Assembly: GCA_028699255.1 (NCBI GenBank)
Contig: JAQVUX010000002.1
Span: 107,520-171,519 of the forward strand
From: Candidatus Omnitrophota bacterium
Lineage (GTDB): Bacteria; Omnitrophota; Gorgyraeia; 2-01-FULL-45-10
DNA length: 64,000 bases
Direction: 5' to 3'
Made by a program: the position numbers and the translations under genes. Below the pieces are notes generated by a model that was not told the origin of the DNA, made no database searches, and was given only the letters and a program-made list of their open reading frames with translations. Shown one piece after another: positions 13,624-40,835 of this stretch (the first letter of the stretch is position 1; each line of letters opens with the position of its first letter).

Positions 13624-13627
13624 CGAG

Positions 13628-15727: not shown

Positions 15728-15728
15728 T

Positions 15729-17415: not shown

Positions 17416-17431
17416 AAACAGGGGGTGGGGT

Positions 17432-17974: not shown

Positions 17975-17977
17975 ACT

Positions 17978-18379: not shown

Positions 18380-18387
18380 GCCCTAAC

Positions 18388-19128: not shown

Positions 19129-19140
19129 AAAGATAATCTT

Positions 19141-21276: not shown

Positions 21277-21277
21277 C

Positions 21278-21886
21278 ATGCTCAAAAATGCAGTGAGGCC
21301 GAGATTTAAACGAAAGCAGTACATCGTAGCAAGGCAATTCCAGCTAAAGTACGCGGGCATGATACTTTTGCTCATGTTCCTCACCGCCGGTTTTTGCGCA
21401 TACGCCATTTATTACACGACGATGATATTATTCGGAGAGAAGCTCGCCAACGTATATCCGCAGGGCCAACTCGTATCTATCGTAAATACGGTTAACTTTC
21501 GCATACTTATCAGCATGCTCGTAATATCTCCGATAGTCGGATTTTTGGGAATATACTTATCCCACAAGATCGCGGGCCCTATCTATAGGATAGAGAAATT
21601 TCTCGGTACGATGGTATCGGGCGACCTTTCAACCCGTATTACATTAAGGAAAGGCGACGAAATGGTTTCTCTGGCGGATGGGATAAACCGCCTTACGGAC
21701 AGCCTGTCCTCGACCATTGCCGCGGAGAAGGCCCAGGTGGAGAATGCCTTGAAGGATCTCTATGCCCTGAGAGAACTCGTTTCTTCCATCCCGCCGAAAG
21801 ATCGCGAACGCGCCGATATCGTTATTGATCGGCTCGATGCCGCGATCCGCGCCATAAATAAGGAGATGGATAAGTACACGGTATAG
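21278..21886 (+). CDS. Membrane protein: 2 TM + HAMP + coiled coil, no output domain
   Basis: Two hydrophobic helices then HAMP-like IAGPIYRIEKFLGTMVSGDLSTRI. Confidence 0.6.
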   Translation: MLKNAVRPRFKRKQYIVARQFQLKYAGMILLLMFLTAGFCAYAIYYTTMILFGEKLANVYPQGQLVSIVNTVNFRILISMLVISPIVGFLGIYLSHKIAGPIYRIEKFLGTMVSGDLSTRITLRKGDEMVSLADGINRLTDSLSSTIAAEKAQVENALKDLYALRELVSSIPPKDRERADIVIDRLDAAIRAINKEMDKYTV

Positions 21887-21915
21887 CACCCGAGATATAA
21901 TTGTAGAACATTCCT
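21883..21915. repeat. Direct repeat copy A (33 bp, begins at stop codon of upstream gene)
   Basis: ATAGCACCCGAGATATAATTGTAGAACATTCCT; 29/33 identical to copy B at 23235-23267. Confidence 0.7.
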
Positions 21916-21957
21916 GACGCTTTATATAGAAAATGAGGGACTTGGGTCCAGTAGTTT

Positions 21958-21990
21958 CAAAAGGGGACGCTACGTCCTTTTTTCTTTTGG
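21958..21990 (+). terminator. Putative rho-independent terminator
   Basis: aaaaGGGGACGctaCGTCCttttttctttt; short GC stem followed by a T-run. Confidence 0.4.
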
Positions 21991-21997
21991 ATCGATA

Positions 21998-22052
21998 TTG
22001 ACTATTTCACTAAAATAGAGTATACTCCAATTTAGTAGCACTAAATTGGAGG
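21998..22052 (+). promoter_or_regulatory. Consensus promoter TTGACT-17-TATACT plus 9-bp palindromic operator overlapping the SD
   Basis: -35 at 21998-22003, -10 at 22021-22026; IR CAATTTAGT agc ACTAAATTG at 22028-22048, abutting GGAGG. Confidence 0.45.
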
Positions 22053-22061
22053 ACGATATAT

Positions 22062-23222
22062 ATGAAAAAGATCAAAAGAATTTTAGACATGAAGCTACCT
22101 GCCGGCCAGTCCGCCTTTTTATGGGGTGCCCGTAAAACCGGCAAAACCACGTATCTGAAAGAAAGGTTTCCCGACAGTAAAGTGTATGATTTTTTAAAAA
22201 CGGACCTGTTTTTGGAGATATCGAAAAACCCGGCGCTTTTACGCGAACGGATACTCGCGCTGGACAATGCGGCACTCAGGAAACCGATAATATTGGATGA
22301 GGTGCAAAAAGTCCCGCAGGCGTTGGACGAAGTACACTGGCTAATAGAAAACAAGGGGTTGGGGTTTGTGCTCTGCGGCTCAAGCGCGAGAAAACTTAAG
22401 AAAGGCCACGCCAATCTTTTAGGCGGCAGAGCCTGGAGATATGAACTGTTCCCGTTTGTGAGCAAGGAGTTGGATAGCATCGATCTTTTGCATGTATTAA
22501 ATCATGGCATGATACCGCTCCACTATTTACAGAATGACGCAGATTGCAGGAGATCTTTAGAGGCTTATGTGCAGGATTACCTACGCGAGGAAGTATTCGC
22601 TGAAGGTTTGACTCGTAATATTCCGGCATTTTCGCGATTTTTTGACGCTTTTGGATATTCGCACGGCGAGATAACCAATTACAGCAATATCGCCAGCGAG
22701 TGCGGAGTAGACTCCAAAACAGTTAAAGAATATTATAATATTCTAATCGATACGTTGTTGGCAATCAGAGTCGAACCTTTTAAAAAGAGACAATCGCGGG
22801 ATGTTATAACCAAGGCATCAAAATATTATATGTTCGATGTAGGTGTCGCCGGATACCTGACAAAAAGGCATCTGGTTGAACAGCGTGGCGCGGAGTTCGG
22901 TAAGGCATTCGAACATTTTATACTTATGGAAATTGCGGCATACAAATCTTATCGCAAGAAAGAGTTCGCGATAAATTTTTGGAGAACAAAGTCGGGTCTT
23001 GAAGTGGATTTTGTGCTCGGCGGCGAGATTGCTATTGAGGTAAAAACGGGCGCGCCGCTTGGTAAAAGGGATATGAATGGATTAAGCGCGTTTACCGATA
23101 CATATTCGCCGAAAAGAAGCATTGTGGTTTGCAACGAAAAAGAGAAAAGGATGCACAATAAAATAGAGATACTTCCATGGGAGAGATTTCTGCGCGAGCT
23201 TTGGGCTGGTAGTATTCTTTAA
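22062..23222 (+). CDS. AAA+ ATPase (COG1373; AAA_14 + DUF4143)
   Basis: Walker A GARKTGKTT, hhhDE Walker B (ILDEVQKV); typical stand-alone COG1373 architecture. Confidence 0.8.
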   Translation: MKKIKRILDMKLPAGQSAFLWGARKTGKTTYLKERFPDSKVYDFLKTDLFLEISKNPALLRERILALDNAALRKPIILDEVQKVPQALDEVHWLIENKGLGFVLCGSSARKLKKGHANLLGGRAWRYELFPFVSKELDSIDLLHVLNHGMIPLHYLQNDADCRRSLEAYVQDYLREEVFAEGLTRNIPAFSRFFDAFGYSHGEITNYSNIASECGVDSKTVKEYYNILIDTLLAIRVEPFKKRQSRDVITKASKYYMFDVGVAGYLTKRHLVEQRGAEFGKAFEHFILMEIAAYKSYRKKEFAINFWRTKSGLEVDFVLGGEIAIEVKTGAPLGKRDMNGLSAFTDTYSPKRSIVVCNEKEKRMHNKIEILPWERFLRELWAGSIL

Positions 23223-23234
23223 TATACAAATAGC

Positions 23235-23267
23235 ATAGCACCCGCAATATACTTGTACAACATTCCT
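23235..23267. repeat. Direct repeat copy B (33 bp, 13 nt after ATPase stop)
   Basis: ATAGCACCCGCAATATACTTGTACAACATTCCT; downstream CGCTTTATA element is also shared with copy A. Confidence 0.7.
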
Positions 23268-23280
23268 TAAACTTGCCCCC

Positions 23281-23346
23281 TTGACAATGCCGCTTTATAG
23301 GGTATACTTTAGGTTACTGCGTATCAGTGTATACTAAAAGAGTATA
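23281..23346 (+). promoter_or_regulatory. Consensus promoter TTGACA-16-TATACT followed by a TATACT/AGTATA palindrome
   Basis: -35 at 23281-23286, -10 at 23303-23308; IR TATACTaaaagAGTATA at 23330-23346. Confidence 0.45.
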
Positions 23347-23378
23347 ACCGATACCAATAATTTAGAGGTGGTGTTCTT

Positions 23379-23573
23379 ATGCCCGAAGACGTTGTCTTCA
23401 CGGTTCAGGAAGTAGCCACATATCTGCGGATGCAACCCGTTACCATCTATAAGCACGCAAAGGCCGGGAAGCTTCCGTGTTTCAAGGTTGGGGCTAACTG
23501 GCGATTTAAGAAGTCAACTATAGATCGCTGGATATCTGAACAGGAAGAGAAAGAAAACGGTTTTTCAAGCTGA
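23379..23573 (+). CDS. Small excisionase-family HTH (HTH_17) DNA-binding protein
   Basis: FTVQEVATYLRMQPVTIYKHAKAGKLPCFKVGANWRFKKSTIDRWI; third HTH_17 paralog in the window. Confidence 0.65.
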   Translation: MPEDVVFTVQEVATYLRMQPVTIYKHAKAGKLPCFKVGANWRFKKSTIDRWISEQEEKENGFSS

Positions 23574-23630
23574 TGTCCAATCTCATATTTTGAGGTTGGC
23601 ATTTTTGTTTGGAGCCGAGATAAGGTAAGT

Positions 23631-24872
23631 TTGAAAAAGCGTATAGTGATTACAGGCATCGGTGTGCTGGCGTCCAACGGGATCGGTAAAAAAGATTTCT
23701 GGAAAGCGATTCTCGATGGCACCTCCGGCATAAAACCCGTGACCCTTTTTGATACGGCAAATATGAAAACGAAGCTTGCCGGCGAGATAAAGGACTTTAA
23801 CCCGGAGGCGATACTCGGATTGAAGGGGCTGAGAAATCTGGATCGTTCGACTAAGCTTGCGCTCGCCGCCTCTAAGATGGCACTCGACGACGCCGCCTTG
23901 GCCGGCCCGGTCGCGGAAGAGGAGACGGACTCCTACGGCGTAGCGCTCGGCACGACGATGGGCTCGGTCTGGTCGATCAGCGAATTCGACAAGGAGGCGC
24001 TGAAAGAAGGGCCGCGGAGCGTCAATCCTGCGCTATTCCCCAATACGGTTATAAACTCTCCGGCGAGCCAGGTCTCGATACGTTTTAACATACAGGGCTT
24101 CAACGGCACGATCTCTACCGGATTTTGCGCGAGTTCCGACGCGATATATTACGCGATGAGCATGATGTCGCTGTACGATTACAAGGTTGTGCTCGCCGGC
24201 GGTGTCGAGGAGCTCTGCGAGCAGACGTATAAAGGTTTCTACAAGATAGGCCATCTCGCCGGATCCCGGACGGGCAAGGATGAGATCGACTGCCCGTTCG
24301 ATAAACGTCGTAACGGTATCATCTTCGGCGAGGGCGCGGCGATATTCGCGCTCGAGGAGCTGGAGCACGCGAAAAAGCGCGGTGCGGCCATATACGCGGA
24401 ACTGCTCGGTTACGGGACGTCGTTCGATCCGGACAGCAAAAATATATACAGCCCGAAGGCAAAAGGCGCAATCCGTGCCATGCTCTCATGCCTCAAAGAT
24501 GCCGGTCTTACAGCGGACGACATCGGATATATATGTGCGGCCGCGAATTCTACGCTCGATTGTGACGCGATGGAGGTTTTGGCCGTAAAAAGCGTATTCG
24601 CAGGCGCGGGGCGCGACGTGCCGATAAGCTCGATAAAGTCTATGATAGGCGAGACGTATTCGGCGGCAGGGGCTATGGGGCTTGCCGCGGCGATAGGCGC
24701 TATCGAGGAGGACGCGATCCCCCCGACGATAAATTACGCCAAGCCGGACAGGCGCTGTGCCGTCGATTGCGTGCCGAACGAAGCGCGCAATCTTAAAATT
24801 AAGAATATACTCGTCGATACTTTCAGCCCGACGGGCGCCAACTCGGTACTGGCCGTGGGAAGGTACGCATGA
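23631..24872 (+). CDS. Beta-ketoacyl-ACP synthase paralog with active-site Cys but lacking both catalytic His
   Basis: KS fold; Cys in GFCASS, but HGTGT is replaced by AAANST and GHxxG by GETYS; TTG start. Confidence 0.75.
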   Translation: MKKRIVITGIGVLASNGIGKKDFWKAILDGTSGIKPVTLFDTANMKTKLAGEIKDFNPEAILGLKGLRNLDRSTKLALAASKMALDDAALAGPVAEEETDSYGVALGTTMGSVWSISEFDKEALKEGPRSVNPALFPNTVINSPASQVSIRFNIQGFNGTISTGFCASSDAIYYAMSMMSLYDYKVVLAGGVEELCEQTYKGFYKIGHLAGSRTGKDEIDCPFDKRRNGIIFGEGAAIFALEELEHAKKRGAAIYAELLGYGTSFDPDSKNIYSPKAKGAIRAMLSCLKDAGLTADDIGYICAAANSTLDCDAMEVLAVKSVFAGAGRDVPISSIKSMIGETYSAAGAMGLAAAIGAIEEDAIPPTINYAKPDRRCAVDCVPNEARNLKIKNILVDTFSPTGANSVLAVGRYA

Positions 24873-25624
24873 GCATGCAAAGGACAGACCTTTTAAAGAA
24901 TAGAGTGGCGATAGTTACCGGCGGGACGCGCGGTATCGGCCGCGCCATCGTATTTGAGCTGATACATAATGGGGCGAAGGTCATATTTACGTATCTGCAG
25001 AGCGTCCAGTCCGCCTCGATAATTTTAGACGAGGTAAAAGAGCTGGGCGGGGAAGCTGTAGCCATCAGGGCGGACGTCAAGGATTACGAAGAGGCAAAGA
25101 AGGTTGTCAAAGAAGCGATGGAAAAATTCGGCGCGCTCGATATTCTCGTGAATAACGCCGGCATAATAAAAGACAAAGCGCTCATGTTTATGGAACCGTC
25201 CGAATGGCAGGATGTTATCGATACGAACCTCACCGGTTACTTTAATATGGCGAAGGCGTGCATCGTTACGATGATGAAACAAAAGAGCGGAAATATTGTG
25301 AATATTTCTTCGGTGTCCGGAGTGGTGGGGATAGCGAAACAGGTGAATTATTCGAGCGCGAAGGCCGGTATCGTGGGACTGACCAAGGCGCTCGCCAAAG
25401 AAGTCGCGCATTACGGTATCAGGGTCAACGCCGTCGCGCCCGGCTTCATAGATACGGACATGACGCGCCAGCTTAAAGCGCGCGATGAACTTATGAAGAT
25501 GATACCCGCCGGGCGGTTCGGCTCGCCTGACGAGGTTGCGAAAGCCGTGTCGTTTTTACTGAGCGACAGGGCGGGATATATAACGGGCCAGGTGATAAAG
25601 GTGGACGGCGGTTTGACCATGTAA
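24869..25624 (+). CDS. fabG: 3-oxoacyl-ACP reductase (SDR)
   Basis: TGGTRGIGRA Rossmann motif, NNAG, YxxxK (YSSAKAG). Confidence 0.85.
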   Translation: MSMQRTDLLKNRVAIVTGGTRGIGRAIVFELIHNGAKVIFTYLQSVQSASIILDEVKELGGEAVAIRADVKDYEEAKKVVKEAMEKFGALDILVNNAGIIKDKALMFMEPSEWQDVIDTNLTGYFNMAKACIVTMMKQKSGNIVNISSVSGVVGIAKQVNYSSAKAGIVGLTKALAKEVAHYGIRVNAVAPGFIDTDMTRQLKARDELMKMIPAGRFGSPDEVAKAVSFLLSDRAGYITGQVIKVDGGLTM

Positions 25625-25628
25625 CCAT

Positions 25629-25663
25629 ATTCGACCTCCGAGGTGCGACCTCGGAGGTCGAAT
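25629..25663. promoter_or_regulatory. Perfect 16-bp inverted repeat (hairpin, 3-nt loop) between fabG and the ACP gene
   Basis: ATTCGACCTCCGAGGT gcg ACCTCGGAGGTCGAAT; no following U-tract. Confidence 0.5.
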
Positions 25664-25702
25664 CAATCGAATCAAGGTAAAGTTAATAGAAGGGGGGAAT
25701 AT

Positions 25703-25951
25703 ATGCCACAGGTAGATGATGTAACGCTGGAAAAAGAGTTGCGCGAAATAATAGCGAAGGTTACGGAGATCGAAACCAAAGAGATCGGGCTCGAATCCAA
25801 GTTCGTAGAGGATCTGGGCATGGATTCGATGATGGCGCTCGAGATACTCGCCGCCATAGAGAAGAAGTACAAGATACAGGTTCCCGAGGAGAAATTGGGC
25901 CGCCTTACCAATTTAAAAGAAGCGGTGAAGCTTACGAAAGAATATCTTTAA
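25703..25951 (+). CDS. acpP: Acyl carrier protein
   Basis: 82 aa with phosphopantetheine attachment motif LGMDSM; RBS AGGGGGG. Confidence 0.85.
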   Translation: MPQVDDVTLEKELREIIAKVTEIETKEIGLESKFVEDLGMDSMMALEILAAIEKKYKIQVPEEKLGRLTNLKEAVKLTKEYL

Positions 25952-25962
25952 GAAAGAGCGCG

Positions 25963-26385
25963 ATGCTTAATGTCGAAGAGATAAAAAGCCTGATCCCCCA
26001 GCGGTACCCGTTTCTGATGATCGACCGGGTTATCGAAATAAAAGAGGGGGAGTTTATAAAGGCGTATAAGAATATCAGCCGGAACGAGGAATGCTTTAAT
26101 GGACACTTCCCGGATTCGGCCGTATTTCCCGGAGCGTTCATCGCGGAGGCGATGGCGCAGGCGGCGTGCATCCTGCTCAAAAAAAGCATTCTCGACCTGA
26201 AGGCCACGCTATTTTACGTTACAAATGTAAAAATACGGTTTTTCAAGACGGTGATTCCCGGCGACCAACTGCATATCACCATAAAAACGATAAAGATGAC
26301 GCGCATCGGCGGGATATTCGAGACCGAGGCGTCTGTAGATAATAATATTGTGTCGAAAGGAGAGATGACCTTTGCCTGCAAATAA
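25963..26385 (+). CDS. fabZ: 3-hydroxyacyl-ACP dehydratase (hot-dog fold)
   Basis: LIPQRYPFLMIDRV..FNGHFP..PG FabZ-like motifs. Confidence 0.85.
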   Translation: MLNVEEIKSLIPQRYPFLMIDRVIEIKEGEFIKAYKNISRNEECFNGHFPDSAVFPGAFIAEAMAQAACILLKKSILDLKATLFYVTNVKIRFFKTVIPGDQLHITIKTIKMTRIGGIFETEASVDNNIVSKGEMTFACK

Positions 26386-27595
26386 GAGAGTTGTTATAAC
26401 CGGCATGGGCGTGGTCTCTTCCATAGGGATAGGGAAGGACGAGTTCTGGAGGAACCTTATCGCCGGGCGGTCCGGTATAAGTGAGGTTAGCCGTTTCGAT
26501 ACGTCCGGTTTTCCCACTCACCGCGCGGGCGAGGTGAAGGACTTTGCCGCCGAGGATTTTATCCCGAAAACGATATGCAAGCGCATCGGCAGAGGCTCGC
26601 AACTCGCGATCTCCGCCGCGCGTCTTGCGCTCGAGGACGCGGCCTTCGATATGAAGAAAGATGCCGGAGACTCTTTTGGTGTAATAATCGGCACGACGAT
26701 GGGCGAGGCGCCGTCGATCGAGATGATAGACAGGTTCTGGACGAGTAAGGGCGAGGACGATGTATATCCGTCCAACGTGAAAAATTTCCCCGTAAACAAT
26801 CTGTCGGACAATGTCGCCGCCGTCCTGGGTTTCACGGGATACAATTATGTCATACCGACCGCATGCGCGGCCGGTAACTATTCTATAGGTTTTGCCTCCG
26901 ATCTTATACGGACGGGGCGCGCGGATTCTCTCCTTGCCGGCGGGGCAGACCCGCTGTCACGGCTCGCGTTCACCGGGTTCAACCGGCTCTTTGCCATGTC
27001 GCCGGATATGTGCCGGCCCTTCGACAAGGATCGTAAAGGAATATTGCTGGGCGAGGGCGGCGCGTTGCTTTTGGTCGAGGCTCTCGAACACGCAAAAGCC
27101 CGTGGCGCCAAGATCTACGCGGAAGTTTTAGGCTACGGGCTTAGCTGTGACGCGCATAACATGACGATACCGAGCCAGAAGGGCGTAATGAAGGTGATGG
27201 AGAAAGCCATACGAAATAGCGGCATAGCAAAAAAAGATGTCGGCTACATATCGGCTCATGGTACGGGCACAGGTTTAAACGACAAGACCGAGTCCGCGGC
27301 GATACGCGAAGTTTTCGGCGACCTGGCCAAAGATATACCCGTGAGCTCGATAAAGTCGATGCTCGGCCATACGATGGGTACGGCGAGCGCTCTCGAGGCG
27401 ATGGCCTGCTGTCTGGCGATACGCGACGGCGTCATTCCGCCGACGATCAATTTCGCGACGCCTGATCCTGAATGCGCTATCGACTGTGTCCCGAACAAAT
27501 CGCGCAAGAAGGATGTCCGGGTCGCGCTCAACAACTCATTCGCTTTCGGCGGCAACAACGCCTGCCTCGCCCTGGCGAGATACGGGGATAATTGA
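26372..27595 (+). CDS. fabF: Beta-ketoacyl-ACP synthase II (canonical Cys-His-His)
   Basis: TACAAGNYS (Cys), SAHGTGTGLND (His), LGHTMGTAS (His); TTG start. Confidence 0.85.
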   Translation: MPANKRVVITGMGVVSSIGIGKDEFWRNLIAGRSGISEVSRFDTSGFPTHRAGEVKDFAAEDFIPKTICKRIGRGSQLAISAARLALEDAAFDMKKDAGDSFGVIIGTTMGEAPSIEMIDRFWTSKGEDDVYPSNVKNFPVNNLSDNVAAVLGFTGYNYVIPTACAAGNYSIGFASDLIRTGRADSLLAGGADPLSRLAFTGFNRLFAMSPDMCRPFDKDRKGILLGEGGALLLVEALEHAKARGAKIYAEVLGYGLSCDAHNMTIPSQKGVMKVMEKAIRNSGIAKKDVGYISAHGTGTGLNDKTESAAIREVFGDLAKDIPVSSIKSMLGHTMGTASALEAMACCLAIRDGVIPPTINFATPDPECAIDCVPNKSRKKDVRVALNNSFAFGGNNACLALARYGDN

Positions 27596-27633
27596 TCTAT
27601 GCCTTTTAAACCTAAATACGTGCATAGAAAAAA

Positions 27634-27665
27634 TATAGGACATTATAGGACATCGATATAGGACA
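27634..27665. promoter_or_regulatory. Three direct repeats of TATAGGACA (spacing 10 and 13 bp)
   Basis: Copies at 27634-27642, 27644-27652 and 27657-27665 in the KS/CrtI-like intergenic region. Confidence 0.4.
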
Positions 27666-27722
27666 AGTGTATCGGCCGGTGCGTTATGACAGTCGTTCTG
27701 GCGAGATACGGGAATTAAAGGA

Positions 27723-29192
27723 ATGAATAAAAAATACGATGTGATAATAATCGGTTCCGGGATAGGCGGATTGGCTGTCGCCGGACTTCTGGCGGAGAAA
27801 AAGAAAGTTCTTGTGCTGGAGAAGAATCGTCCTTTGGGCGGATATTGCGCAAGCTTCAAAAGAGGCGACTATCTTTTTGAGTCGGCGGTCCAGGCGATAA
27901 ACGGTCTTTATAAAGGCAGTCCGATATATGATATTCTGAAAAGAACGAGCGCTCTTTCAGCCACGGAGATCGAAAGCCCCAAAGAGTTGTACAGGAGTAT
28001 ATTCCCGGATTACGACATAACTATTCCGCAAAAAGATCTGGCGAAGTATAAAAAGATGCTTTTTTCGTTTTTCCCGAGGGAGAAAGAGAATATCGAATCA
28101 CTTTTCAGCGTAATGGAGTCGCTATATATGGAGATGAGGAGATTTTATCTGGGCGAAGCGCCTAAGAAAAGCCCCTTTATCCTCCGTTATTATAAAAGGT
28201 CCCTCAGAGACCTGCTCGATGAATTCATAAAGGACGATAAGCTTAAGGCCATCATCTCGCAGTACTGGATGTACCGAGGCCTTCCGCCCAGCAAGCTCTC
28301 CGCGATCACTTTCTCATACATATGGTATGACTATACGGCGAACGGCAGTTATTTCCCGCGCGGGGGAATGGAAGACATTATAAAGAGCATGACAGATTTC
28401 ATCAGGAAGAGCGGCGGAGATGTGATGATTGGTTGCGAAGTCGCAAAGATACATGTCGAAAAGGGTGAGGCCTCAGGCGTGGAGCTTAAGAATGGGGATA
28501 GGTTTTCCGCGGATAGCGTTGTTTCGGGCATAGATGTTTTTGGGACATTCGCCATGATCGACGGCGCGGAGAAGACGGCCATCGCCCCATTTTTGAAAAA
28601 GCTTAAGGAGAATGCGATATCGATATCGGCTTTTAAAGTTTATCTTGGCCTTGATGTGGATGTCAGGAGCTTGGGCGTGAAAGATTATGAGATATTCGTA
28701 AATCCTTCATATGACATGGAGTCGATGTACCGATCGTCCGTAGATAATGATTTCCAGGACGCCCCGTATTCGATAACGATATACTCCAACCTGTCCGGCG
28801 CTTTCTGCGGCAAAGGCAAATCCGCTGTTTCCATAGGCATGTTGTCGGGTTACGATTTTTGGAAGGGCTTGTCCCGCACAGAATATAAAAAGAACAAGGA
28901 AGAGGCGCTCGAGACTCTGCTCGGCCGCGCGGAAAAAATAATCCCCGGCTTAAGAAAGCATATAAAAGTCAAAATAGCCGGTACGCCGCTTACAATGGAA
29001 AGATATACCGGCAACAGCCAGGGGTCGATCTACGGCTGGAATAGAAAAAACCTTGCCGACGAAATGCAGTTTATCAATCCCACTACGCCTATAAAAAATC
29101 TTATGCTTGCCAGCCACTGGACAAAGATGGGCGGAGGGATAGGTGGGGTGCTGTTATCGTCGGATCGTGTGAGTAATCTGTTAAAAGGATAA
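27723..29192 (+). CDS. FAD-dependent oxidoreductase, phytoene-desaturase (CrtI) family
   Basis: N-terminal dinucleotide-binding VIIIGSGIGGLAVAGLLAE..LVLEKNRPLGG; COG1233-like length. Confidence 0.8.
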   Translation: MNKKYDVIIIGSGIGGLAVAGLLAEKKKVLVLEKNRPLGGYCASFKRGDYLFESAVQAINGLYKGSPIYDILKRTSALSATEIESPKELYRSIFPDYDITIPQKDLAKYKKMLFSFFPREKENIESLFSVMESLYMEMRRFYLGEAPKKSPFILRYYKRSLRDLLDEFIKDDKLKAIISQYWMYRGLPPSKLSAITFSYIWYDYTANGSYFPRGGMEDIIKSMTDFIRKSGGDVMIGCEVAKIHVEKGEASGVELKNGDRFSADSVVSGIDVFGTFAMIDGAEKTAIAPFLKKLKENAISISAFKVYLGLDVDVRSLGVKDYEIFVNPSYDMESMYRSSVDNDFQDAPYSITIYSNLSGAFCGKGKSAVSIGMLSGYDFWKGLSRTEYKKNKEEALETLLGRAEKIIPGLRKHIKVKIAGTPLTMERYTGNSQGSIYGWNRKNLADEMQFINPTTPIKNLMLASHWTKMGGGIGGVLLSSDRVSNLLKG

Positions 29193-29193
29193 T

Positions 29194-30483
29194 ATGAAAA
29201 GAGTTGTTATTACAGGTATAGGCCCGATGTCTTCCCTGGGCACCGGATGCAAAGAGACGTGGGATTCGATCTTAAGCTCAAGATTGAATCTCGTCAAAGA
29301 GCATTATTCCGTAGGCGGCGAGGAGTGGGGAGAGTTTTATCTGCACAAACTGCGCGATTTTAGCATAGATAAGTTTGACCTGCCGAAGGAAAACTTCAAA
29401 TTTGTAAAAGGATTAAGGACGGTAAAAAAAGAGGATACGGATCTTTATTATCTGCTGGCTGTCATCAAGCTTGCTATAGAGGACAGCAAACTTAAGTACG
29501 ATCTGGAAAATAACGCCATGGGCCTTATCCTGTCGCACGAAAATCCGGGCGTGGAGATATTTTTTGAGGAGCTTATCGATTCACTTTACGATATATTCAA
29601 GACGAATCAGGGCAAAGACGCGACGAAGTTGGAACTCGCGAAAGCCGTATATAACGGCGGATGCGAAGAGCGCGGCTACAATCTGCAGTCATTTTCCTAT
29701 CTATTCTCCGCCGCGAAAGTCTTCGACCTGCACGGATATTCGCTCTTTATCAATAACGCGTGCGCGTCGGGACTATTCGCCATAGAATCGGCGGCGCGGC
29801 AGATAAAGTCCGGTGTTTCGCCGGCCGTTATCGTGGCCGCCGTGGATAATCCGACGAAGATATACAAATATTTGTGGTTTAAGAAGAAAGGCCTTTATGC
29901 CGAGGATGGCATCACGCGTCCGTTTTCAGACGAAGCCAATGGCATTGTTTTCGGAGACGGCGGCGCGGCGCTGGTGTTGGAGGATCTCGAACACGCGAAA
30001 GCGCGTAGCGCGCATATATATGCCGAGTACTTAGGCGGCGGCTTTTCGCTCGAGGGTTGGAAGATAACGGTGCCGGACGTAACAGGCGATTTTTACGCGC
30101 GCTCATTCAGGCAGGCGCTGGAAACCGCCAGGATCAAGCCGGACGATGTCGACTTTGTCAACCCTCACGGGGTCGGCATGAAGATAACCGATATATATGA
30201 GGCGAGGACCATCAACGATGTATTTAAAGGGAAGAAGCCGCTCGTAAGTGCGTTCAAACCGCTGGTCGGGCATAATCTGGGCGGTAGCGCGCTTTTGGAG
30301 AGTGCGATAGCGCTTTTAGCAATGGAAAACAGCCTCGTTCCGGCAACATTGAATTACAAGAGCGGAGCCAATGGCCTGAAAATCGTCAGCAAAAATCAAA
30401 AAGCGGATATAAACGTCATGGCAAAAATGTCATGCGGCTTCGCGGGGTTTAACGGGGTATCGATATTCGGGAAGGTAACATGA
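29194..30483 (+). CDS. Divergent beta-ketoacyl synthase paralog
   Basis: NNACASGL (Cys), NPHGVG and VGHNLGGS (His); long insertions relative to FabF. Confidence 0.75.
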   Translation: MKRVVITGIGPMSSLGTGCKETWDSILSSRLNLVKEHYSVGGEEWGEFYLHKLRDFSIDKFDLPKENFKFVKGLRTVKKEDTDLYYLLAVIKLAIEDSKLKYDLENNAMGLILSHENPGVEIFFEELIDSLYDIFKTNQGKDATKLELAKAVYNGGCEERGYNLQSFSYLFSAAKVFDLHGYSLFINNACASGLFAIESAARQIKSGVSPAVIVAAVDNPTKIYKYLWFKKKGLYAEDGITRPFSDEANGIVFGDGGAALVLEDLEHAKARSAHIYAEYLGGGFSLEGWKITVPDVTGDFYARSFRQALETARIKPDDVDFVNPHGVGMKITDIYEARTINDVFKGKKPLVSAFKPLVGHNLGGSALLESAIALLAMENSLVPATLNYKSGANGLKIVSKNQKADINVMAKMSCGFAGFNGVSIFGKVT

Positions 30484-31046
30484 GAGCATTGATATTGGAT
30501 GGATCGAGAAAAGAAGATAAGGTGCTTGAGAAGGCCCATAATATAATAAAAGAGCGCTTAGAAAAAGATAATTGGGAAGTAAAATCCTTTATCCTGCGAG
30601 ATATTCAGGTGGCACCATGTTTGGGATGTTTTGGTTGTTGGATAAAGACGCCCGGCGTATGCGTCATAAATGACCTCGGGCGGGAAGTGGCTCGTTTGGC
30701 ATCACAAAGCGATATGTGGGTTCTTATTACTCCGGTGATTTTTGGGGGGTATTCCTCGGAATTAAAAAAAGCTATTGATCGAATGATCTGTATCGGGTTG
30801 CCGTTTTTTAATACAGTAAAAAATGAGGTTCGCCATATTCCTAGATATTTGAAGCGTCCTATTCTTGTAGGGTTTGGGTTGCTCGGTGAAGATAATGTGA
30901 GTAGCGCGCCAATATTTAAAGCGCTCGTTGAAAGGAATAGTAATAATTTTCAAAGTGCTTTTAGCCGCAGTGAGATTTTTTTATCAGATGATGATGGGAA
31001 AAACATAGCAAATAAAATTGATAATACGTTATCAGGGGTAATTTAA
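30480..31046 (+). CDS. Iron-sulfur flavoprotein-like NAD(P)H-dependent FMN reductase family protein
   Basis: Flavodoxin-like fold with CLGCFGCWIKTPGVC (Cx2Cx2Cx7C); AT-rich gene. Confidence 0.6.
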   Translation: MRALILDGSRKEDKVLEKAHNIIKERLEKDNWEVKSFILRDIQVAPCLGCFGCWIKTPGVCVINDLGREVARLASQSDMWVLITPVIFGGYSSELKKAIDRMICIGLPFFNTVKNEVRHIPRYLKRPILVGFGLLGEDNVSSAPIFKALVERNSNNFQSAFSRSEIFLSDDDGKNIANKIDNTLSGVI

Positions 31047-31711
31047 TGAATTCATCAAAAAGCGTGCTAATTTTAAATGGTAGTCCAAAGCAAGACGGAG
31101 GAGTTTCGGGTAATATCGGTAATCGTATTTTGAGTTCTTTAGCCGTAAAAGGTATGCGGGGCGTAATGATTCGTATTATTGATGTTGCGGGTTCTAAAGA
31201 AAGATTGGATGTTTTAGTCGATCAGATAAATAATTCGGAAGCCATTATATTATCCTGTCCTTTATATATCGATAGCATACCATCTTATGTTATTCGCGCA
31301 ATAGAGCATATTGGCGAGTCCAGAAAAAAAACAGGTGGAGCTAATGTGCGATTGGCCGTAATTATGCACTGTGGCTTTCCGGAGGCTTTTCATAATGATG
31401 TTGCTATCCGTATATTTCGGCAATTTGCGATAGAGTCAAGATTTGAATGGATTGGCGGTATGGCATTTGGGATGGCACCGATAATTAATAATAAATTAAT
31501 AACTTTTCAGTGTAAAAATATAGATAAAGCGATTAAGTCGATGACCGATGCTATTTACTCAGGTACAGCGATTCCTGAAAAAGCTATTACTCTGATAGCA
31601 AGACCTTTTATGCCAACAATGCTTTATACATGCGTTGGTAATATTCTTTGGCGCATGATAGCTTTTAAGAATAAAGCATTAAAAATTAATGCGACTCCTT
31701 ACGCCAGTTAA
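31046..31711 (+). CDS. Flavodoxin-like NAD(P)H-dependent oxidoreductase family protein
   Basis: VLILNGSPK...ILSCPLY pattern of the FMN-reductase fold. Confidence 0.55.
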   Translation: MNSSKSVLILNGSPKQDGGVSGNIGNRILSSLAVKGMRGVMIRIIDVAGSKERLDVLVDQINNSEAIILSCPLYIDSIPSYVIRAIEHIGESRKKTGGANVRLAVIMHCGFPEAFHNDVAIRIFRQFAIESRFEWIGGMAFGMAPIINNKLITFQCKNIDKAIKSMTDAIYSGTAIPEKAITLIARPFMPTMLYTCVGNILWRMIAFKNKALKINATPYAS

Positions 31712-31752
31712 AAAATGTATTTTCTATAATGTGTAAATAGGGGATTGACAGT

Positions 31753-33918
31753 ATGAATTTATTTTCAATTTTCGGTTTAGTAATAGGGCTTACAACTCTT
31801 TTTTTGGCGGTGCTACTTTTAAGATTTGGAAATATGCGGAACGATTTGCACCGTTCGCTATTCTTACTAAATATAGCTTTGGTAATATGGGGCTTTGGAT
31901 GCATGATGGTTGGAATGTCGGCCGATGCGGCGTCAGCGCTTTTTTGGTGGAAGATAGCGCATATAGGCGGTGTTTTTACCGTTTGTTTTATTTTGGAAAA
32001 TGTATTAGCAGTTACTGAGAGTAAGAAGAGGTGGTTTTTGATTTTTGCATACACAGAAGCATCTCTTTTTCAAGTCTTCTCGTTCTTTGATCTTTTGCAA
32101 GTAAAAATGACGTATGTTTTTAATTCTTTTTACTACATCACTCCAAACGGTATTGTATATCCGATATTCACTTTTTGTTTTCTTTTAGTCTGTTACTATT
32201 CCGCTATTATTTTAGTTACCGCTCTTTGGCATTCGCAAGGTCAAAAACGTTTACAGCTTAAATATCATCTATTTGCATTTTTATTTGGCATAGTTGGTGG
32301 AACGACGCACTTTTTCACAGTTTATTTTCCGAATGTTTTTCCTTACGGGTCATTATTACTTCCCGGATTTCCATTATTGACGACCTATGCAATCCTGAAA
32401 CACAAGTTTTTAAATATCGAAGTAATCATAAAAAAGACTCTCGTTTTTGCAGGGTTATTTGCGTCTGTCTTTGCCATGGTCATTCTGCCGACGCTGATTT
32501 TGCAGGAATATATATTCCGAAGCGCGAGTTTTGGCGGTAAGATACTGGGATTTGCGATAAGCGGCGCTATTATTATCCTGACGATGCGGCGCATCGAGTC
32601 CTTCCTTATAAGCATTACCGATAAATACCTATTCCAGAAGAAATACGATTACAAGGAATTGCTCAAGACATTTACGACTGAGGTATTGACGGTACTGGAT
32701 CTCGACCGGCTCGTGAACCTGACGGTTGATAAGATCGGTGACATCATGAAGATATCTTCCGCATCGGTTCTTCTATTGGATGCGGACAAGGTGCAGTTCG
32801 ATGTCGCGGCATCGCAAGGCATAAAAGATCCGTCAGTCGCTTTATTGAAGTCGGACGCTATAGTAACATTTATGGAGAAGACGCACGGGCACATACTGCT
32901 TTCTGACATGAAAAAGAATAAGATAATAATACCTGCCGCGGTGCAGGCTACCATGGACAGGTTAAACACAGAGCTCATGATCCCTATGATCATGCGCGAA
33001 GAAGTGACGGGCATCCTGTCGCTCGGCAAGAAGAAGTCCGATGAGGAATACACACAGGACGACCTCGACATACTTTTGCCGCTGGCGCGCACTCTCGCCA
33101 TCGCCATATCGAACGCCAAGTTCTTCGACGAGCTCAGCAAAACGCAGGCCGAAGCCGCGCAGAAAGAAAAGATGGCGGTTATCGGTACGCTTTCGGCCGG
33201 GATAAACCATGAGATATGCAATCCTCTCGGCATAGCGCGCGGCCAGTGCGAGGCGTTCCTGCTGAATTTGAAAGACGGCCTCTATAAGTTGAAGACCAAC
33301 GAAGAGCTACTCACTAAAGCCAAAGATATCATGGCGAAGGTCATCCATGAAACCGACCGGGCGACGGCCATCACGAAGAAGCTGTCGCAATTTGCCAAGC
33401 CGGCTAAAGGCGACCTGGAGATAGTCGGTATTGATAAAGAGATTGACGATGTCCTGGGGCTGGTGGATTATGAGCTAAAGCTTGAGAAGATCGAGATAGA
33501 GAAACGGCTTCAGGAAAACCTGCCGAATATCTTTGTCGACAAGAAGCAGTTTCAGGAGGTTTTATTCAACCTGATACGAAACGCAGGGCAGGCGATAGGC
33601 GAGAAGGGCCGGATAATAGTTACCGCCAGGCGTGAGAAGGGAAAAGTATATATCGATATAAAGGATTCGGGCGCAGGTATTCCGCCCGATAAGATAAAAC
33701 AACTGTTCAATCCGTTCTTTACTACCAAGGATCCGGGCAAAGGCACCGGCCTCGGACTTTTCATAGTCCGCCAGGTCATAGAGAAGAACGGCGGCCGCAT
33801 TCGCCTTAAAGAGACTAAGGTCGGCGAAGGCACGACGTTTACTCTGGAATTCCCGGAAGCGAGCCAGGAAGATTATGCAAGCGCAAAGAAAGGAAAAACA
33901 GTTAATGGCAAAACCTAA
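31753..33918 (+). CDS. Sensor histidine kinase: polytopic membrane N-domain, GAF, HisKA, HATPase
   Basis: ~7 TM helices, GAF, H-box INHEICNPLG, then N/G1/G2 boxes (NAGQA, DSGAGIP, GTGLGL). Confidence 0.85.
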   Translation: MNLFSIFGLVIGLTTLFLAVLLLRFGNMRNDLHRSLFLLNIALVIWGFGCMMVGMSADAASALFWWKIAHIGGVFTVCFILENVLAVTESKKRWFLIFAYTEASLFQVFSFFDLLQVKMTYVFNSFYYITPNGIVYPIFTFCFLLVCYYSAIILVTALWHSQGQKRLQLKYHLFAFLFGIVGGTTHFFTVYFPNVFPYGSLLLPGFPLLTTYAILKHKFLNIEVIIKKTLVFAGLFASVFAMVILPTLILQEYIFRSASFGGKILGFAISGAIIILTMRRIESFLISITDKYLFQKKYDYKELLKTFTTEVLTVLDLDRLVNLTVDKIGDIMKISSASVLLLDADKVQFDVAASQGIKDPSVALLKSDAIVTFMEKTHGHILLSDMKKNKIIIPAAVQATMDRLNTELMIPMIMREEVTGILSLGKKKSDEEYTQDDLDILLPLARTLAIAISNAKFFDELSKTQAEAAQKEKMAVIGTLSAGINHEICNPLGIARGQCEAFLLNLKDGLYKLKTNEELLTKAKDIMAKVIHETDRATAITKKLSQFAKPAKGDLEIVGIDKEIDDVLGLVDYELKLEKIEIEKRLQENLPNIFVDKKQFQEVLFNLIRNAGQAIGEKGRIIVTARREKGKVYIDIKDSGAGIPPDKIKQLFNPFFTTKDPGKGTGLGLFIVRQVIEKNGGRIRLKETKVGEGTTFTLEFPEASQEDYASAKKGKTVNGKT

Positions 33919-34288
33919 AATAGTCGCGATAGACGACGAGGCTGATTTCATACAAATGTTGAGGGATTACTTCGAACCACGGGAGTACGAAATAAATGTC
34001 GCGATCCGTGGGGCGCGGGGGATCGAACTGGTTAAAGAGAAACAGCCGGATGTCGTCCTGATGGACCTGAAGATGCCGGGTATCGACGGCGACGAGGTGC
34101 TTAAGCTCATGGCGTCGATGAGCCACGCGCCGAAGATAATATTCATAACGGCGTACGACGACGGCGGTAAGACGAAGGCGCGCCTTCTGGAACTGGGGGC
34201 GTTCGCGTGTCTCGACAAACCGATAGCCTCGTTAAAAGGTCTGGAGGAGATGATTATCCGCGCGGCGGGTAATGTGGTAAATAAGTAG
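33905..34288 (+). CDS. Single-domain response regulator (receiver only)
   Basis: IVAIDDE...LMDLKMPGIDG...K; overlaps the kinase stop by 14 nt; RBS AAGGA. Confidence 0.8.
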   Translation: MAKPKIVAIDDEADFIQMLRDYFEPREYEINVAIRGARGIELVKEKQPDVVLMDLKMPGIDGDEVLKLMASMSHAPKIIFITAYDDGGKTKARLLELGAFACLDKPIASLKGLEEMIIRAAGNVVNK

Positions 34289-34311
34289 CGGTAAGCAGTA
34301 AGGAGGTAGTA

Positions 34312-34668
34312 ATGAAGAAGATACTCGTAGTTGACGATGAGCACGACATATGCGATTTTCTCCAGAGCTTCTTTCAGGAGAGAGGGTATGCCGTGCGGTT
34401 CGCCACGAGCGGAGACTCCGCGCTCGCAATGGTAAAAGAGGAGAGGCCCGACCTGATGCTCCTCGATGTAAAGATGCAGGGTATGGACGGTATCGCGGTG
34501 CTCAAGCACGTCAAGGATATCGATAAACAGATAAAAGTGGTCATGGTTACGGCTCTCGAAGACCAGGATAGGATAGATGAAGCGTGCCGCCTCGGCGCGT
34601 CCGAGTATATCACAAAGCCGCTTGTTCTCGAAAATCTCGAACGCGCGGTTGAGAATAATTTAAAATAA
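34312..34668 (+). CDS. Single-domain response regulator (receiver only)
   Basis: ILVVDDE...LLDVKMQGMDG...KP. Confidence 0.85.
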   Translation: MKKILVVDDEHDICDFLQSFFQERGYAVRFATSGDSALAMVKEERPDLMLLDVKMQGMDGIAVLKHVKDIDKQIKVVMVTALEDQDRIDEACRLGASEYITKPLVLENLERAVENNLK

Positions 34669-34680
34669 CAAAAGGAGAAT

Positions 34681-36051
34681 GTGGTAATGGATAAACCGAA
34701 AAAAGCGCCGAGTTGGGACAAGCTCAATAATCTCTTCGTCGAGAATACCGCGGGCCGCGGCGCCAACCGCATAAATCCGCAAAGCGATCAACAGGACGGC
34801 TCGCCACCGGAGGGCGTTATGCCAAAATACGATTACCAGGCGTTTTTGGAGAAGGCGTCCAGGACGATGATACGCTTCAAAAAGCCCGAACATCTTATAA
34901 AGATGATCGTCCGGACGATCGACGAACAGCTTAAGGTAACGCACACCGCCGTGCTTTTATTTAAAGAACATAAGCATTCCTATATTCTGATAGATTCGAA
35001 GGGCGCGCACGGTGTAAAACTGCCGATAGGTTTTATAAAGCTGGCCGCGGATAATCCTCTCATCAGCGTATTTACCGGGAAGGAAAGTTATCTTATATCC
35101 GAGACGGGTATATTGCGCTCCGACGATGTTATCACCGGCCTGCGAAACCGCGAGATACTCGAGCGCCAGCCGGCGCTTTATGACAAACTGCTTCTCATAA
35201 AGAAGCAGATGGATCTGATAAAGGCGAAGCTGTGCGTACCGTGTTATTTTAAGCGCGAACTCTTGGGCATACTCGTCCTGGGCGAGAAGATATCGGGCGA
35301 GAGTTTCAGCCGCGAGGAGATGGGATTTTTCGTTACGCTTGCCAACGACGCCGCAATGGCCATAGCGAACGCGCTACTTATCGAAAACTTACAGCAAAAG
35401 ATCGACGAGATAAAGGAGCTCTACGTCCGCGAGCACCGCATATTCATACATACGGCGATAGCGATGGCCGCGGCCATAGACGCGCGCGATCCGTACACGC
35501 ACGGACACACGGAGCGCGTTACGACCTACTGTCTGGCGATAGCCAGGGAGCTCGAGGGCATCCCCGAGATGTCGGCATACAAGAATTTCAGGGAGACTCT
35601 GCAGATATCGGCGCTCCTGCATGATATCGGCAAGATCGGCATTCCCGACCACATCCTAAATAAGCACGGCAAGCTTTCGCCGGAGGAGTTCGAGGAGATA
35701 AAGAAGCACTCGATAATCGGCGCGACTATACTGCATCCGATCAAGGAATTGAGCGACGTTGCGAGGGAAGTGCGCCACCATCAGGAGTGTTACGACGGTT
35801 CGGGTTATCCGGACGGGGTGAAGGGCGCGGATATCCCGCTCATCGCCAGGATAATAGCGGTGGCCGATGCTTTCGACGCCATAACTACCGACCGGCCGTA
35901 TAAACGCAGAAAGAGGATCGAGGACGCCCTGCAGGAATTGAAGCGCTGTTCCGGTTCGCAATTTGATCCGGTTATCGTGAGCGCGTTTTTATTGGCTTAT
36001 GAGAAAGGTAATATAATCACAAGTAGTGACCAAACCCCAAGGCTGGGATAA
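34681..36051 (+). CDS. GAF + HD-GYP domain phosphodiesterase (c-di-GMP)
   Basis: HTERVTTY, HDIGKIGIPD, GYP (YDGSGYPDG); GTG 34681 or ATG 34687. Confidence 0.85.
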   Translation: MVMDKPKKAPSWDKLNNLFVENTAGRGANRINPQSDQQDGSPPEGVMPKYDYQAFLEKASRTMIRFKKPEHLIKMIVRTIDEQLKVTHTAVLLFKEHKHSYILIDSKGAHGVKLPIGFIKLAADNPLISVFTGKESYLISETGILRSDDVITGLRNREILERQPALYDKLLLIKKQMDLIKAKLCVPCYFKRELLGILVLGEKISGESFSREEMGFFVTLANDAAMAIANALLIENLQQKIDEIKELYVREHRIFIHTAIAMAAAIDARDPYTHGHTERVTTYCLAIARELEGIPEMSAYKNFRETLQISALLHDIGKIGIPDHILNKHGKLSPEEFEEIKKHSIIGATILHPIKELSDVAREVRHHQECYDGSGYPDGVKGADIPLIARIIAVADAFDAITTDRPYKRRKRIEDALQELKRCSGSQFDPVIVSAFLLAYEKGNIITSSDQTPRLG

Positions 36052-36056
36052 AAGCG

Positions 36057-36704: not shown

Positions 36705-36733
36705 TTGACAAAATCGGAATTGCATGATATATT
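36705..36733 (+). promoter_or_regulatory. Promoter AAAGATTTGACAA-17-TATATT for the giant repeat-protein gene
   Basis: -35 at 36705-36710, -10 at 36728-36733; a TCAAGT/ACTTGA palindrome lies upstream at 36663-36687. Confidence 0.4.
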
Positions 36734-36765
36734 TCTTATGCTTGGTAGCGAGGATGGTCAAAATC

Positions 36766-40829: not shown

Positions 40830-40835
40830 ACAAAA

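Follow-up and report, generated by a model that had tools for sequence, protein, structure and literature searches.

The gene cluster described here lies at positions 23379 to 31711 of a 64,000-nucleotide stretch of DNA (hereafter, the window) from a metagenome-assembled genome (MAG) of Candidatus Omnitrophota (assembly GCA_028699255.1, contig JAQVUX010000002.1, positions 107,520 to 171,519 of the forward strand). We consider it somewhat probable that this cluster is an anammox-type fatty acid synthesis (FAS) module, built around a ketosynthase (KS) and a chain-length factor (CLF), which serves bulk lipid synthesis and carries a flavin-dependent tailoring branch. Most likely, the module is the main type II FAS (FAS II) elongation operon of its host, or a large part of it, supplying acyl chains for the membrane rather than making a pigment; its housekeeping status is something that we infer. 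Two of its ketosynthases, KS1 and KS2, and its acyl carrier protein (ACP) are, by sequence comparison, specifically related to the anammox proteins amxFabFmut, amxFabF2 and amxACP, respectively. The gene complement is complete for ketosynthase, ketoreductase (KR), dehydratase (DH) and ACP; in addition, it includes the triad-less ketosynthase KS1, a CrtI/CRTISO-like FAD enzyme homologous to phytoene dehydrogenase (PDH), a second active ketosynthase (KS3) and an FMN_red protein. The biosynthetic genes are the following:

23631..24872, + strand: KS1, triad-less ketosynthase paralog of the amxFabFmut ortholog family (alignments, PDB search, tree).
24869..25624, + strand: FabG, 3-oxoacyl-ACP reductase (TIGR01830, 304.1 bits).
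25703..25951, + strand: acyl carrier protein, 82 aa, DSM phosphopantetheine site, amxACP-like (PF00550, PDB search).
25963..26385, + strand: FabZ, 3-hydroxyacyl-ACP dehydratase (NF000582, 147.9 bits).
26372..27595, + strand: KS2, Cys-His-His ketosynthase, amxFabF2-like (PDB search, triad alignment; NCBI MDD3905362.1).
27723..29192, + strand: PDH, FAD-dependent oxidoreductase of the CrtI/CRTISO/RetSat superfamily (PF01593, NAD_binding_8; NCBI MDD3905363.1).
29194..30483, + strand: KS3, divergent ketosynthase with intact Cys-His-His and an N-terminal insertion (Pfam, alignment; NCBI MDD3905364.1).
30480..31046, + strand: Isf-like FMN_red flavoprotein with a Cys47/50/53/61 motif, a possible Fe-S site (PF03358, 46.5 bits).
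31046..31711, + strand: second flavodoxin-like open reading frame (ORF), weakly assigned (sub-threshold Pfam).

Together with a small HTH_17 gene upstream, they make a run of ten genes on the same strand, recognized from the ORF list and from Pfam and NCBIfam scans of the window. A preliminary description of this DNA had presented these genes as co-directional and tightly packed or overlapping, and all were found where it had placed them. The three NCBI proteins listed belong to an Omnitrophota MAG contig of 252,287 bp.

KS1 has lost its catalytic residues. Its active-site register was read from three ungapped alignments: a MAFFT alignment of 170 KS, a BLASTP alignment with E. coli FabF, gap-free over residues 122 to 221, and a HMMER alignment with PDB chain 9s5h_C. 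The KS1 motif STGFCASS pairs with ATACTSGV of FabF, which puts a Phe at the position of Cys163 and a Cys one residue later, where E. coli has a Thr. The preliminary description had credited KS1 with a retained active-site Cys, and this claim is refuted by all three alignments. On the other hand, the loss of both catalytic histidines that it had reported is real, since His303 is replaced by Ala and His340 by Glu in the MAFFT alignment as well as in the BLASTP alignment to E. coli FabF; Lys335 is retained (E. coli FabF numbering). With Phe163, Ala303 and Glu340 at the three catalytic positions, the whole triad is therefore gone. Across the KS1 family, the Cys163 position is occupied in the MAFFT alignment by Phe, Ile, Met, Tyr or Leu, and the Cys at +1 is confined to the close relatives of the window protein, deeper Omnitrophota and anammox proteins having Thr, Ser or Asn there. 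An acyl-holding or acyltransferase role for KS1, exerted through this Cys, was considered and ruled out, because the residue is off the nucleophile position and is not conserved. Thus, the data support the idea of a FAS/PKS-like cluster of type II in which one KS partner is catalytically disabled, but not that of a non-decarboxylating partner acting via a retained Cys: KS1 is predicted to be a chain-length-factor-like subunit instead, by analogy with what has been shown experimentally for its anammox relative.

That relative is encoded by Cluster I of anammox bacteria (Kuenenia kuste3603-3608), which specifies amxACP, amxFabZ, amxFabF2, amxFabFmut, a phytoene-dehydrogenase homolog and a B12 radical-SAM protein. 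PDB entry 9S5H is the KS/chain-length-factor-like heterodimer of amxFabF2 and amxFabFmut (see also 9S5I), and the two proteins decarboxylate malonyl-ACP only together, not singly (bioRxiv 10.64898/2026.05.19.726425). The closest CHARACTERISED relatives of KS1, KS2, ACP and FabZ were judged by PDB match scores. For KS1, the best solved relative is 9s5h_C with 376 bits (HMMER), as against at most 265 bits for FabF and 163 for the actinorhodin CLF. For KS2, it is 9s5h_B with 488 bits, followed by the polyene ketosynthase Iga11 (374 bits) and by FabF (at most 340). The top three matches of the ACP are all anammox ACPs (7auf, 7qv0_D and 9s5i_E, 61-65 bits; others at most 43), and the window ACP is 45-53% identical to the ACPs of anammox loci. 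FabZ is not specifically anammox-like (P. aeruginosa FabZ, 114 bits, versus amxFabZ, 112 bits). In a neighbour-joining (NJ) tree of the ketosynthases with 100 bootstraps, KS1 and amxFabFmut form a clade supported at 100%, with an anammox subclade at 100% and an Omnitrophota subclade at 94%. The link to the anammox ladderane cluster, which the preliminary description had put forward as a speculation, is in fact the best-supported relationship of the cluster, through the PDB matches of KS1, KS2 and ACP and through the KS1 clade.

KS2 and KS3 both retain Cys-His-His in the alignment of 170 KS, in agreement with their first description as a canonical and a divergent third ketosynthase. Homologs of KS1 make up more than 100 protein clusters at 67-79% identity, and those that are named come nearly all from Omnitrophota/Omnitrophica MAGs. 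Within Omnitrophota, KS1 is as conserved as its presumed active partner (mean pairwise identity 59.8% versus 58.6% for KS2), whereas in anammox bacteria the dead subunit evolves faster than the active one (75.7% versus 81.9%). The conservation of KS1 in Omnitrophota hints at more than a passive scaffold role.

How widespread is this module? A scan of one genome per species, with the KS1-family alignment as the query, found 122 relatives. Among the best 80 of the 122 are Omnitrophota proteins with 45-77% identity, anammox Brocadiia proteins with 45-48%, one protein from an Elusimicrobiota single-cell genome and one from a MAG labelled Rhodocyclaceae. The ORFs of the corresponding loci (designated by L numbers) were classed by BLAST against the window proteins, and frequencies were taken from the 29 non-anammox loci with enough flanking sequence. 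FabG and ACP are each found in 97% of these, an active KS in 93%, PDH in 79%, and a 7TM kinase and HTH_17 in 76% each; KS3 is present in 24%, and the Isf-like and second flavoproteins in 10% each. The full arrangement of the window recurs in L007, L009, L013, L018, L020 and L024. Thus, the phylum-wide core is HTH_17-KS1-FabG-ACP-(FabZ)-KS2-PDH, usually followed by the 7TM kinase, receivers and an HD-GYP protein, and KS3 with the two flavoproteins is a minority add-on.

The cluster's kinship with Cluster I raises the question of ladderane lipid biosynthesis, a long-standing open problem. Of the six gene types of Cluster I, five are represented in the window (ACP, FabZ, active KS, triad-less KS and PDH), and antiSMASH labels such clusters as "ladderane", in Omnitrophota MAGs among others (PMC9902471). 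The sixth type behaves differently. In anammox loci, the ORF after PDH bears B12-binding and Radical_SAM domains, and this gene was found by tblastn in every anammox locus long enough to cover the position, but neither the window nor any of the non-anammox loci yields a tblastn match to it (E <= 1e-3). Moreover, the PDH of the window, while of the same superfamily and in the same position as that of Cluster I, is just 31-34% identical to the anammox proteins, PDHs being deeply divergent; the literature restricts ladderanes to anammox bacteria, and Cluster I itself is without a direct experimental tie to them. Without the radical-SAM gene, there is no support for ladderane synthesis, and the cluster is not to be filed as a ladderane cluster; that it makes ladderanes in the way proposed for Cluster I is scarcely credible. 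Clusters labelled "ladderane" by antiSMASH have been reported from non-anammox phyla, including Omnitrophota, and a part in making fatty acids has been suggested for them (PMC9902471, PMC11968836). Such calls in Omnitrophota MAGs may mark radical-SAM-less clusters of the present type. Functionally unsolved clusters with this label were therefore already known in Omnitrophota, and the present one is a variant of them.

An indication of what the module does comes from the locus L049 of one MAG (5100-15612), with the gene order yceD(DUF177)-rpmF-plsX-fabH-fabD-fabG-KS1-fabZ-KS2-acp-PDH-acyl reductase, the last gene encoding an NAD_binding_4 fatty-acyl reductase. In E. coli, the order is yceD-rpmF-plsX-fabH-fabD-fabG-acpP-fabF. 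The module of L049 thus occupies the acpP-fabF slot of a canonical FAS operon, and this context makes a main acyl-ACP elongation system likelier than a pigment cluster. In the complete 1.43-Mb chromosome CP070780.1 (L012), fabH and fabD lie 8 kb from HTH_17-KS1-FabG-ACP. A FabF-like KS of WOR_2-type Omnitrophota is found in the same HTH_17/7TM-kinase locus, either beside a KS1-type gene (L046, L088) or in a FabG-AcpP-KS arrangement (L089). A separate housekeeping operon around the FabF-like KS of L046 was considered and rejected, both of the matches examined being in the HTH_17/7TM-kinase locus. None of the approximately 55 loci carries a second fabG-acpP-fabF set beside the module. Finally, FabG and FabZ of the window score above their equivalog cut-offs (TIGR01830, 304.1 versus 297.75; NF000582, 147.9 versus 113), and the comparable conservation of KS1 and KS2 within Omnitrophota points in the same direction.

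The opposite view is that of an accessory cluster for a specialised lipid or polyene, with canonical FAS encoded elsewhere in the genome. According to this, the cluster would use its own ACP, KS/CLF, KR and DH, with no enoyl reductase, to produce a polyunsaturated or otherwise modified chain, which PDH would desaturate or isomerise and KS3 extend. Several observations favour it and weigh against a role in bulk synthesis. Neither the 64-kb window nor the 10 kb 5' of it, where pilus, ribosomal and Obg genes are the only ones, contains fabH, fabD, fabI, plsX or an extra fabF or acpP. An enoyl-ACP reductase was likewise not found, either in the window or at any related locus, and none of FabI, FabK, FabL and FabV was seen at the loci examined. 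A canonical fabF-acpP-fabI set is possible elsewhere in the genome, beyond the window and these 10 kb. KS2 falls below the FabF equivalog cut-off (TIGR03150, 443.1 versus 493.75), although it passes the subfamily model PRK07314 (429 versus a cut-off of 387), and the ACP falls below that of AcpP (TIGR00517, 52.7 versus 70.45); KS2 is nearer to the highly reducing polyene ketosynthase Iga11 than to any FabF, and its grouping with amxFabF2 is recovered at only 51% bootstrap, or 77% with Iga11 included (NJ). FabZ is present in only 52% of the 29 non-anammox loci. The accessory genes vary as they do in specialised-metabolite clusters: KS3, several PDH types at 25-40% identity, a LuxD-like acyltransferase/methyltransferase and a fatty-acyl reductase. 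Canonical-type AcpP occurs in some loci, L042 and L089 (72-75% identity to E. coli AcpP). In anammox bacteria, the homologous cluster coexists with a canonical FAS (PMC2649909, PMC4790861), and the anammox heterodimer prefers C6-C8 chains in crosslinking, which is short for membrane lipids (bioRxiv 10.64898/2026.05.19.726425).

Against the accessory view stand the conservation of the module throughout the phylum, the 1.43-Mb genome included, its position in the rpmF-plsX-fabHDG operon of L049, the scores of FabG and FabZ as true FAS enzymes and the lack of a second fabG-acpP-fabF set alongside. On balance, we regard an accessory cluster as possible but rather unlikely. The same features (phylum-wide occurrence, equivalog-level FabG and FabZ, the L049 operon, no second FAS set seen at any of the loci) make doubtful the statement of the preliminary description that this is not housekeeping FAS, although the absence of fabH, fabD and fabI from the window, on which it was based, stands. 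Literature searches on fatty acid synthesis in Omnitrophota yielded nothing usable.

A third explanation, that the cluster directs synthesis of an aryl polyene, a flexirubin or another type II polyketide synthase (PKS) pigment, appears highly improbable. KR, DH and ACP are indeed present along with a KS and its defective partner, and FabG reaches 275 bits on the model of the flexirubin reductase FlxB, under the cut-off of 340. However, the cluster and its immediate surroundings lack genes for an ammonia-lyase, an aryl-adenylating enzyme, a thioesterase, a second DH pair and LolA/MMPL export, its ketosynthases fall with those of anammox bacteria rather than with PKS CLFs, and an RND pump gene (54944-59510) lies 23 kb off. 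The missing aryl-polyene hallmarks, pointed out previously, are confirmed for all genes from 16744 to 36608, and an aryl-polyene cluster is rejected on this ground.

Returning to the reading of the cluster as a module for bulk lipid synthesis, its mechanism can be sketched as follows. KS2, the active subunit, and KS1, the chain-length-factor-like one, would form an elongating heterodimer as do amxFabF2 and amxFabFmut; this is suggested by orthology and by the adjacency of the genes. With the amxACP-like carrier, FabG and FabZ, the pair would elongate acyl chains on ACP. PDH could then carry out C-C/C=C redox chemistry or isomerisation on the ACP-bound chain, be it anaerobic desaturation, isomerisation or saturation of an enoyl group. 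In this lineage, KS3 may elongate the modified intermediate, and the Isf-like and flavodoxin-like proteins may pass electrons to or from PDH. HTH_17 and the downstream 7TM kinase, receivers and HD-GYP protein would constitute a conserved regulatory neighbourhood.

PDH is the least conserved part of the cluster. The window protein is 60-64% identical to those of L009 and L013, about 40% to those of L018, L020 and L024, 27-31% to those of most other Omnitrophota and 31-34% to the anammox proteins; the identity between any two PDH groups is only 25-40%, too low to fix orthology with the anammox PDH. All family scores are under the cut-off (carot_isom, 146.8 versus 586.9; crtI_fam TIGR02734, 118.9 versus 238.1). 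Since the best of these scores is that of a carotenoid isomerase and since some sources name PDH homologs retinol saturase, saturation, of the enoyl-reductase kind, seems as plausible as desaturation. In E. coli, no CrtI activity was seen with the anammox homologs (PMC4790861). The redox partners beside PDH vary between genomes: the Isf-like and flavodoxin-like proteins of the window give way to a nitroreductase in L003 and to a Shikimate_DH-like protein in L001, L012 and L042. Other accessory genes at or near this position are that of the LuxD-like acyltransferase-methyltransferase in L003 and that of the fatty-acyl reductase in L049.

The other members of the tailoring branch are less well defined. 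KS3 scores at most 149 bits against any solved KS and forms a clade of its own (bootstrap 100, NJ tree). The assignment of the first flavoprotein to the Isf-like Fe-S flavoproteins has in its favour an FMN_red score of 46.5 bits and the four-Cys motif C47-x2-C50-x2-C53-x7-C61, but the motif is incomplete in three of four homologs, and its fourth Cys is not conserved among them. The second, flavodoxin-like ORF has syntenic homologs (three, at 31-36% identity), and the flavodoxin label attached to it is backed only by sub-threshold Pfam scores of 23.1 and 21.4 bits. A sequence search of PDB with the two flavoproteins gave no match at E <= 1, and their single-sequence AlphaFold2 models were unusable (pLDDT 34 for the Isf-like protein and 41 for the other).

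These elements can be assembled into a more daring scheme, which we judge distinctly unlikely as a whole. In this scheme, the primary FAS of Omnitrophota would use a KS/CLF heterodimer; PDH would be the missing enoyl-ACP reductase or an O2-independent acyl-ACP desaturase/isomerase, served by small flavin/Fe-S proteins; and anammox Cluster I would be this ancestral module with a B12 radical-SAM enzyme added.

The remaining features of the locus, upstream, between and downstream of the biosynthetic genes, are the following:

23281..23308, + strand: sigma-70-like promoter match TTGACA-16-TATACT, 5' of the HTH_17 gene (consensus match only, 11/12 positions).
23379..23573, + strand: HTH_17 (excisionase/BldC-like) small DNA-binding protein, 64 aa (Pfam PF12728, 58 bits).
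23577..23599, + strand: terminator-like hairpin with T-run between HTH_17 and KS1 (pattern match only).
25629..25663, + strand: perfect 16-bp stem-loop in the fabG-acp spacer (-29 kcal/mol, z = -3.7, no U-tail).
27634..27665, + strand: three exact TATAGGACA direct repeats in the KS2-PDH spacer, a candidate operator (exact-copy search).
31753..33918, + strand: HisKA_7TM-GAF histidine kinase (domain scan).
33875..34668, + strand: two stand-alone receiver-domain proteins (33875-34288 and 34312-34668; domain scan).
34681..36051, + strand: GAF/HD-GYP (HD_5) protein (domain scan).

Genes of the cluster overlap or are separated by at most 18 nt, except at fabG-acp (78 nt with the corrected acp start) and at KS2-PDH (127 nt). 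The 7TM kinase gene starts 41 nt past the last biosynthetic gene, and the tight packing runs on to 36051. The unit probably does not end at 31711, where the preliminary description had closed it, and extends to 36051, taking in the kinase, the two receiver proteins and the HD-GYP protein. The consensus promoter proposed upstream does match at 11 of 12 positions, but the region is not enriched in such matches relative to shuffled sequence (23 found versus 20.4 expected).

Two of the spacers contain candidate non-coding elements. The ORF listed for ACP starts at 25643; the likely start is the ATG at 25703, which is preceded by a AAGGGGGG ribosome-binding site, and the stem-loop lies ahead of this start, after the stop codon of fabG. 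Its function could be to set the stoichiometry of ACP, through processing or stability of the RNA. The TATAGGACA repeats start at 27634, 27644 and 27657 and have no other exact copy in the 64-kb window. Among the relatives compared, this triple repeat is not conserved; at the KS2-PDH junction, related loci have either no spacer or an insertion of 2-3.6 kb.

The regulatory genes, by contrast with the spacers, recur across the phylum. An HTH_17 ortholog lies directly 5' of KS1 in 76% of the 29 non-anammox loci, with up to 95% identity between MAGs (its NCBIfam MADS1 score is under the cut-off), and the syntenic kinase lies 3' of the cluster in 76% of related loci despite varied upstream contexts. 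The HD-GYP protein is syntenic in L001, L003, L010, L011 and others. This arrangement suggests a conserved link of lipid synthesis with two-component or c-di-GMP signalling, and HTH_17 together with the 7TM kinase, receivers and HD-GYP protein suggests a regulation tied to the membrane. The kinase, two receiver-only proteins and HD-GYP protein were also observed as a set 3' of the cluster in L001, L003, L010, L011, L023, L031 and others. HTH_17 domains occur elsewhere in the neighbourhood: a bactofilin-HTH_17 fusion protein is encoded in the window (17432-17974), and several further small HTH_17 paralogs are found 5' of the cluster in relatives (L003, L006, L007 and others). Just 5' of the HTH_17 gene is a gene for an AAA_14/DUF4143 ATPase (22062-23222). 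Because a gene with a very similar AAA_14/DUF4143 C-terminus is inserted between KS2 and KS3 in L007 (about 14000-16170), this gene may be mobile or often relocated.

Genes flanking the cluster are ordinary housekeeping ones (ProA, NadD, ArgS, Mfd, SurA, PdxA, KsgA, GatA, GatB, TsaD). Further out, LarB-like (AIRC) and LarC-like (Ni_insertion) genes for the nickel-pincer cofactor lie at 18388-21276, LarC being fused to PDZ domains in the window (711 aa) and the two being encoded by separate genes in L003. A Tc-toxin/RHS-like set occupies 36724-47699 and comprises a 1011-aa FG-GAP/He_PIG/TIG protein, a 371-aa SpvB-domain protein and a 2287-aa protein with TcdB_toxin_midN and RHS repeats. At 54468-59510, 23 kb from the cluster and with no evident link to it, are genes for a MarR regulator, an outer-membrane efflux protein and an AcrB-type RND pump.

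What do these data change for the ladderane problem? Cluster I has been viewed as unique to ladderane producers (bioRxiv 10.64898/2026.05.19.726425). Its KS pair and ACP have specific relatives, and its FabZ and PDH positional counterparts, in an operon found throughout Omnitrophota; among the loci scanned, only the radical-SAM gene is restricted to anammox bacteria. This confinement points to the radical-SAM protein as the ladderane-specific step, and the KS/CLF, ACP and PDH genes are recast as a general, possibly primary, lipid-synthesis module. Two questions can thereby be approached without anammox cultures, namely, how a CrtI-like flavoprotein acts on acyl-ACPs and whether a KS/CLF pair is capable of bulk fatty acid synthesis. 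Beyond what was known of such clusters, the present analysis corrects the active site of KS1, ties the KS pair to the family of the anammox heterodimer of known structure, confines the radical-SAM gene to anammox loci, places the module of L049 in a canonical operon and distinguishes a sub-variant with KS3 and flavoproteins.

Among known systems, canonical FAS II resembles the module in its FabG and FabZ, which are at equivalog level here, and in the continuation of yceD-rpmF-plsX-fabH-fabD-fabG by the module of L049. It differs in that FabF is homodimeric, whereas the KS of the module is probably heterodimeric; here ACP and KS2 are under the equivalog cut-offs, there is an extra flavoprotein branch, and fabH and fabD are absent from the window. 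With the KS/CLF pairs of type II PKS (actinorhodin ActI; Iga11/Iga12 of ishigamide), the module shares the logic of an active KS with a neighbouring inactive paralog that shapes the tunnel, and Iga11 is the second-best solved match of KS2. Nevertheless, KS1 has a Phe where classical CLFs have a Gln at the Cys position, it is nearer to amxFabFmut than to the actinorhodin CLF (376 versus 163 bits), and the cluster lacks cyclases, aromatases and further tailoring genes of PKS.

For the tailoring branch, two analogies come to mind. Helicobacter pylori FabX is a flavin- and [4Fe-4S]-dependent acyl-ACP dehydrogenase/isomerase involved in anaerobic synthesis of unsaturated fatty acids. The parallel, which is an analogy only, would consist in a flavoenzyme working on acyl-ACP, electrons carried by Fe-S and flavin, and a KS elongating the unsaturated intermediate; FabX belongs to a FabK/NMO-like family, in contrast to the CrtI-like PDH. 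The Isf protein of Methanosarcina thermophila has a compact CX2CX2CX4-7C motif. The window flavoprotein is of the same FMN_red family and has its Cys47/50/53/61 motif at the same position, but it differs in having no match to a solved structure (E <= 1) and in a fourth Cys that its homologs do not conserve.

The closest system remains anammox Cluster I. Both have an active KS with a triad-less partner of the same ortholog family (bootstrap 100), an amxACP-like ACP, and FabZ and a CrtI-superfamily flavoprotein 3' of KS genes; in both, the dead subunit has a Glu for His340 and keeps Lys335. The anammox loci have the B12 radical-SAM gene, which the Omnitrophota locus lacks, and Val, Ile or Glu at position 163, where the window protein has Phe. 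The Omnitrophota cluster has KS1 as its first gene and contains FabG, its PDH is far removed in sequence, and it is bordered by a conserved HTH_17 gene and by a two-component system; the present variant has KS3 and two flavoproteins in addition. Finally, the module of Omnitrophota probably replaces a canonical FAS, instead of being added to one as in anammox bacteria.

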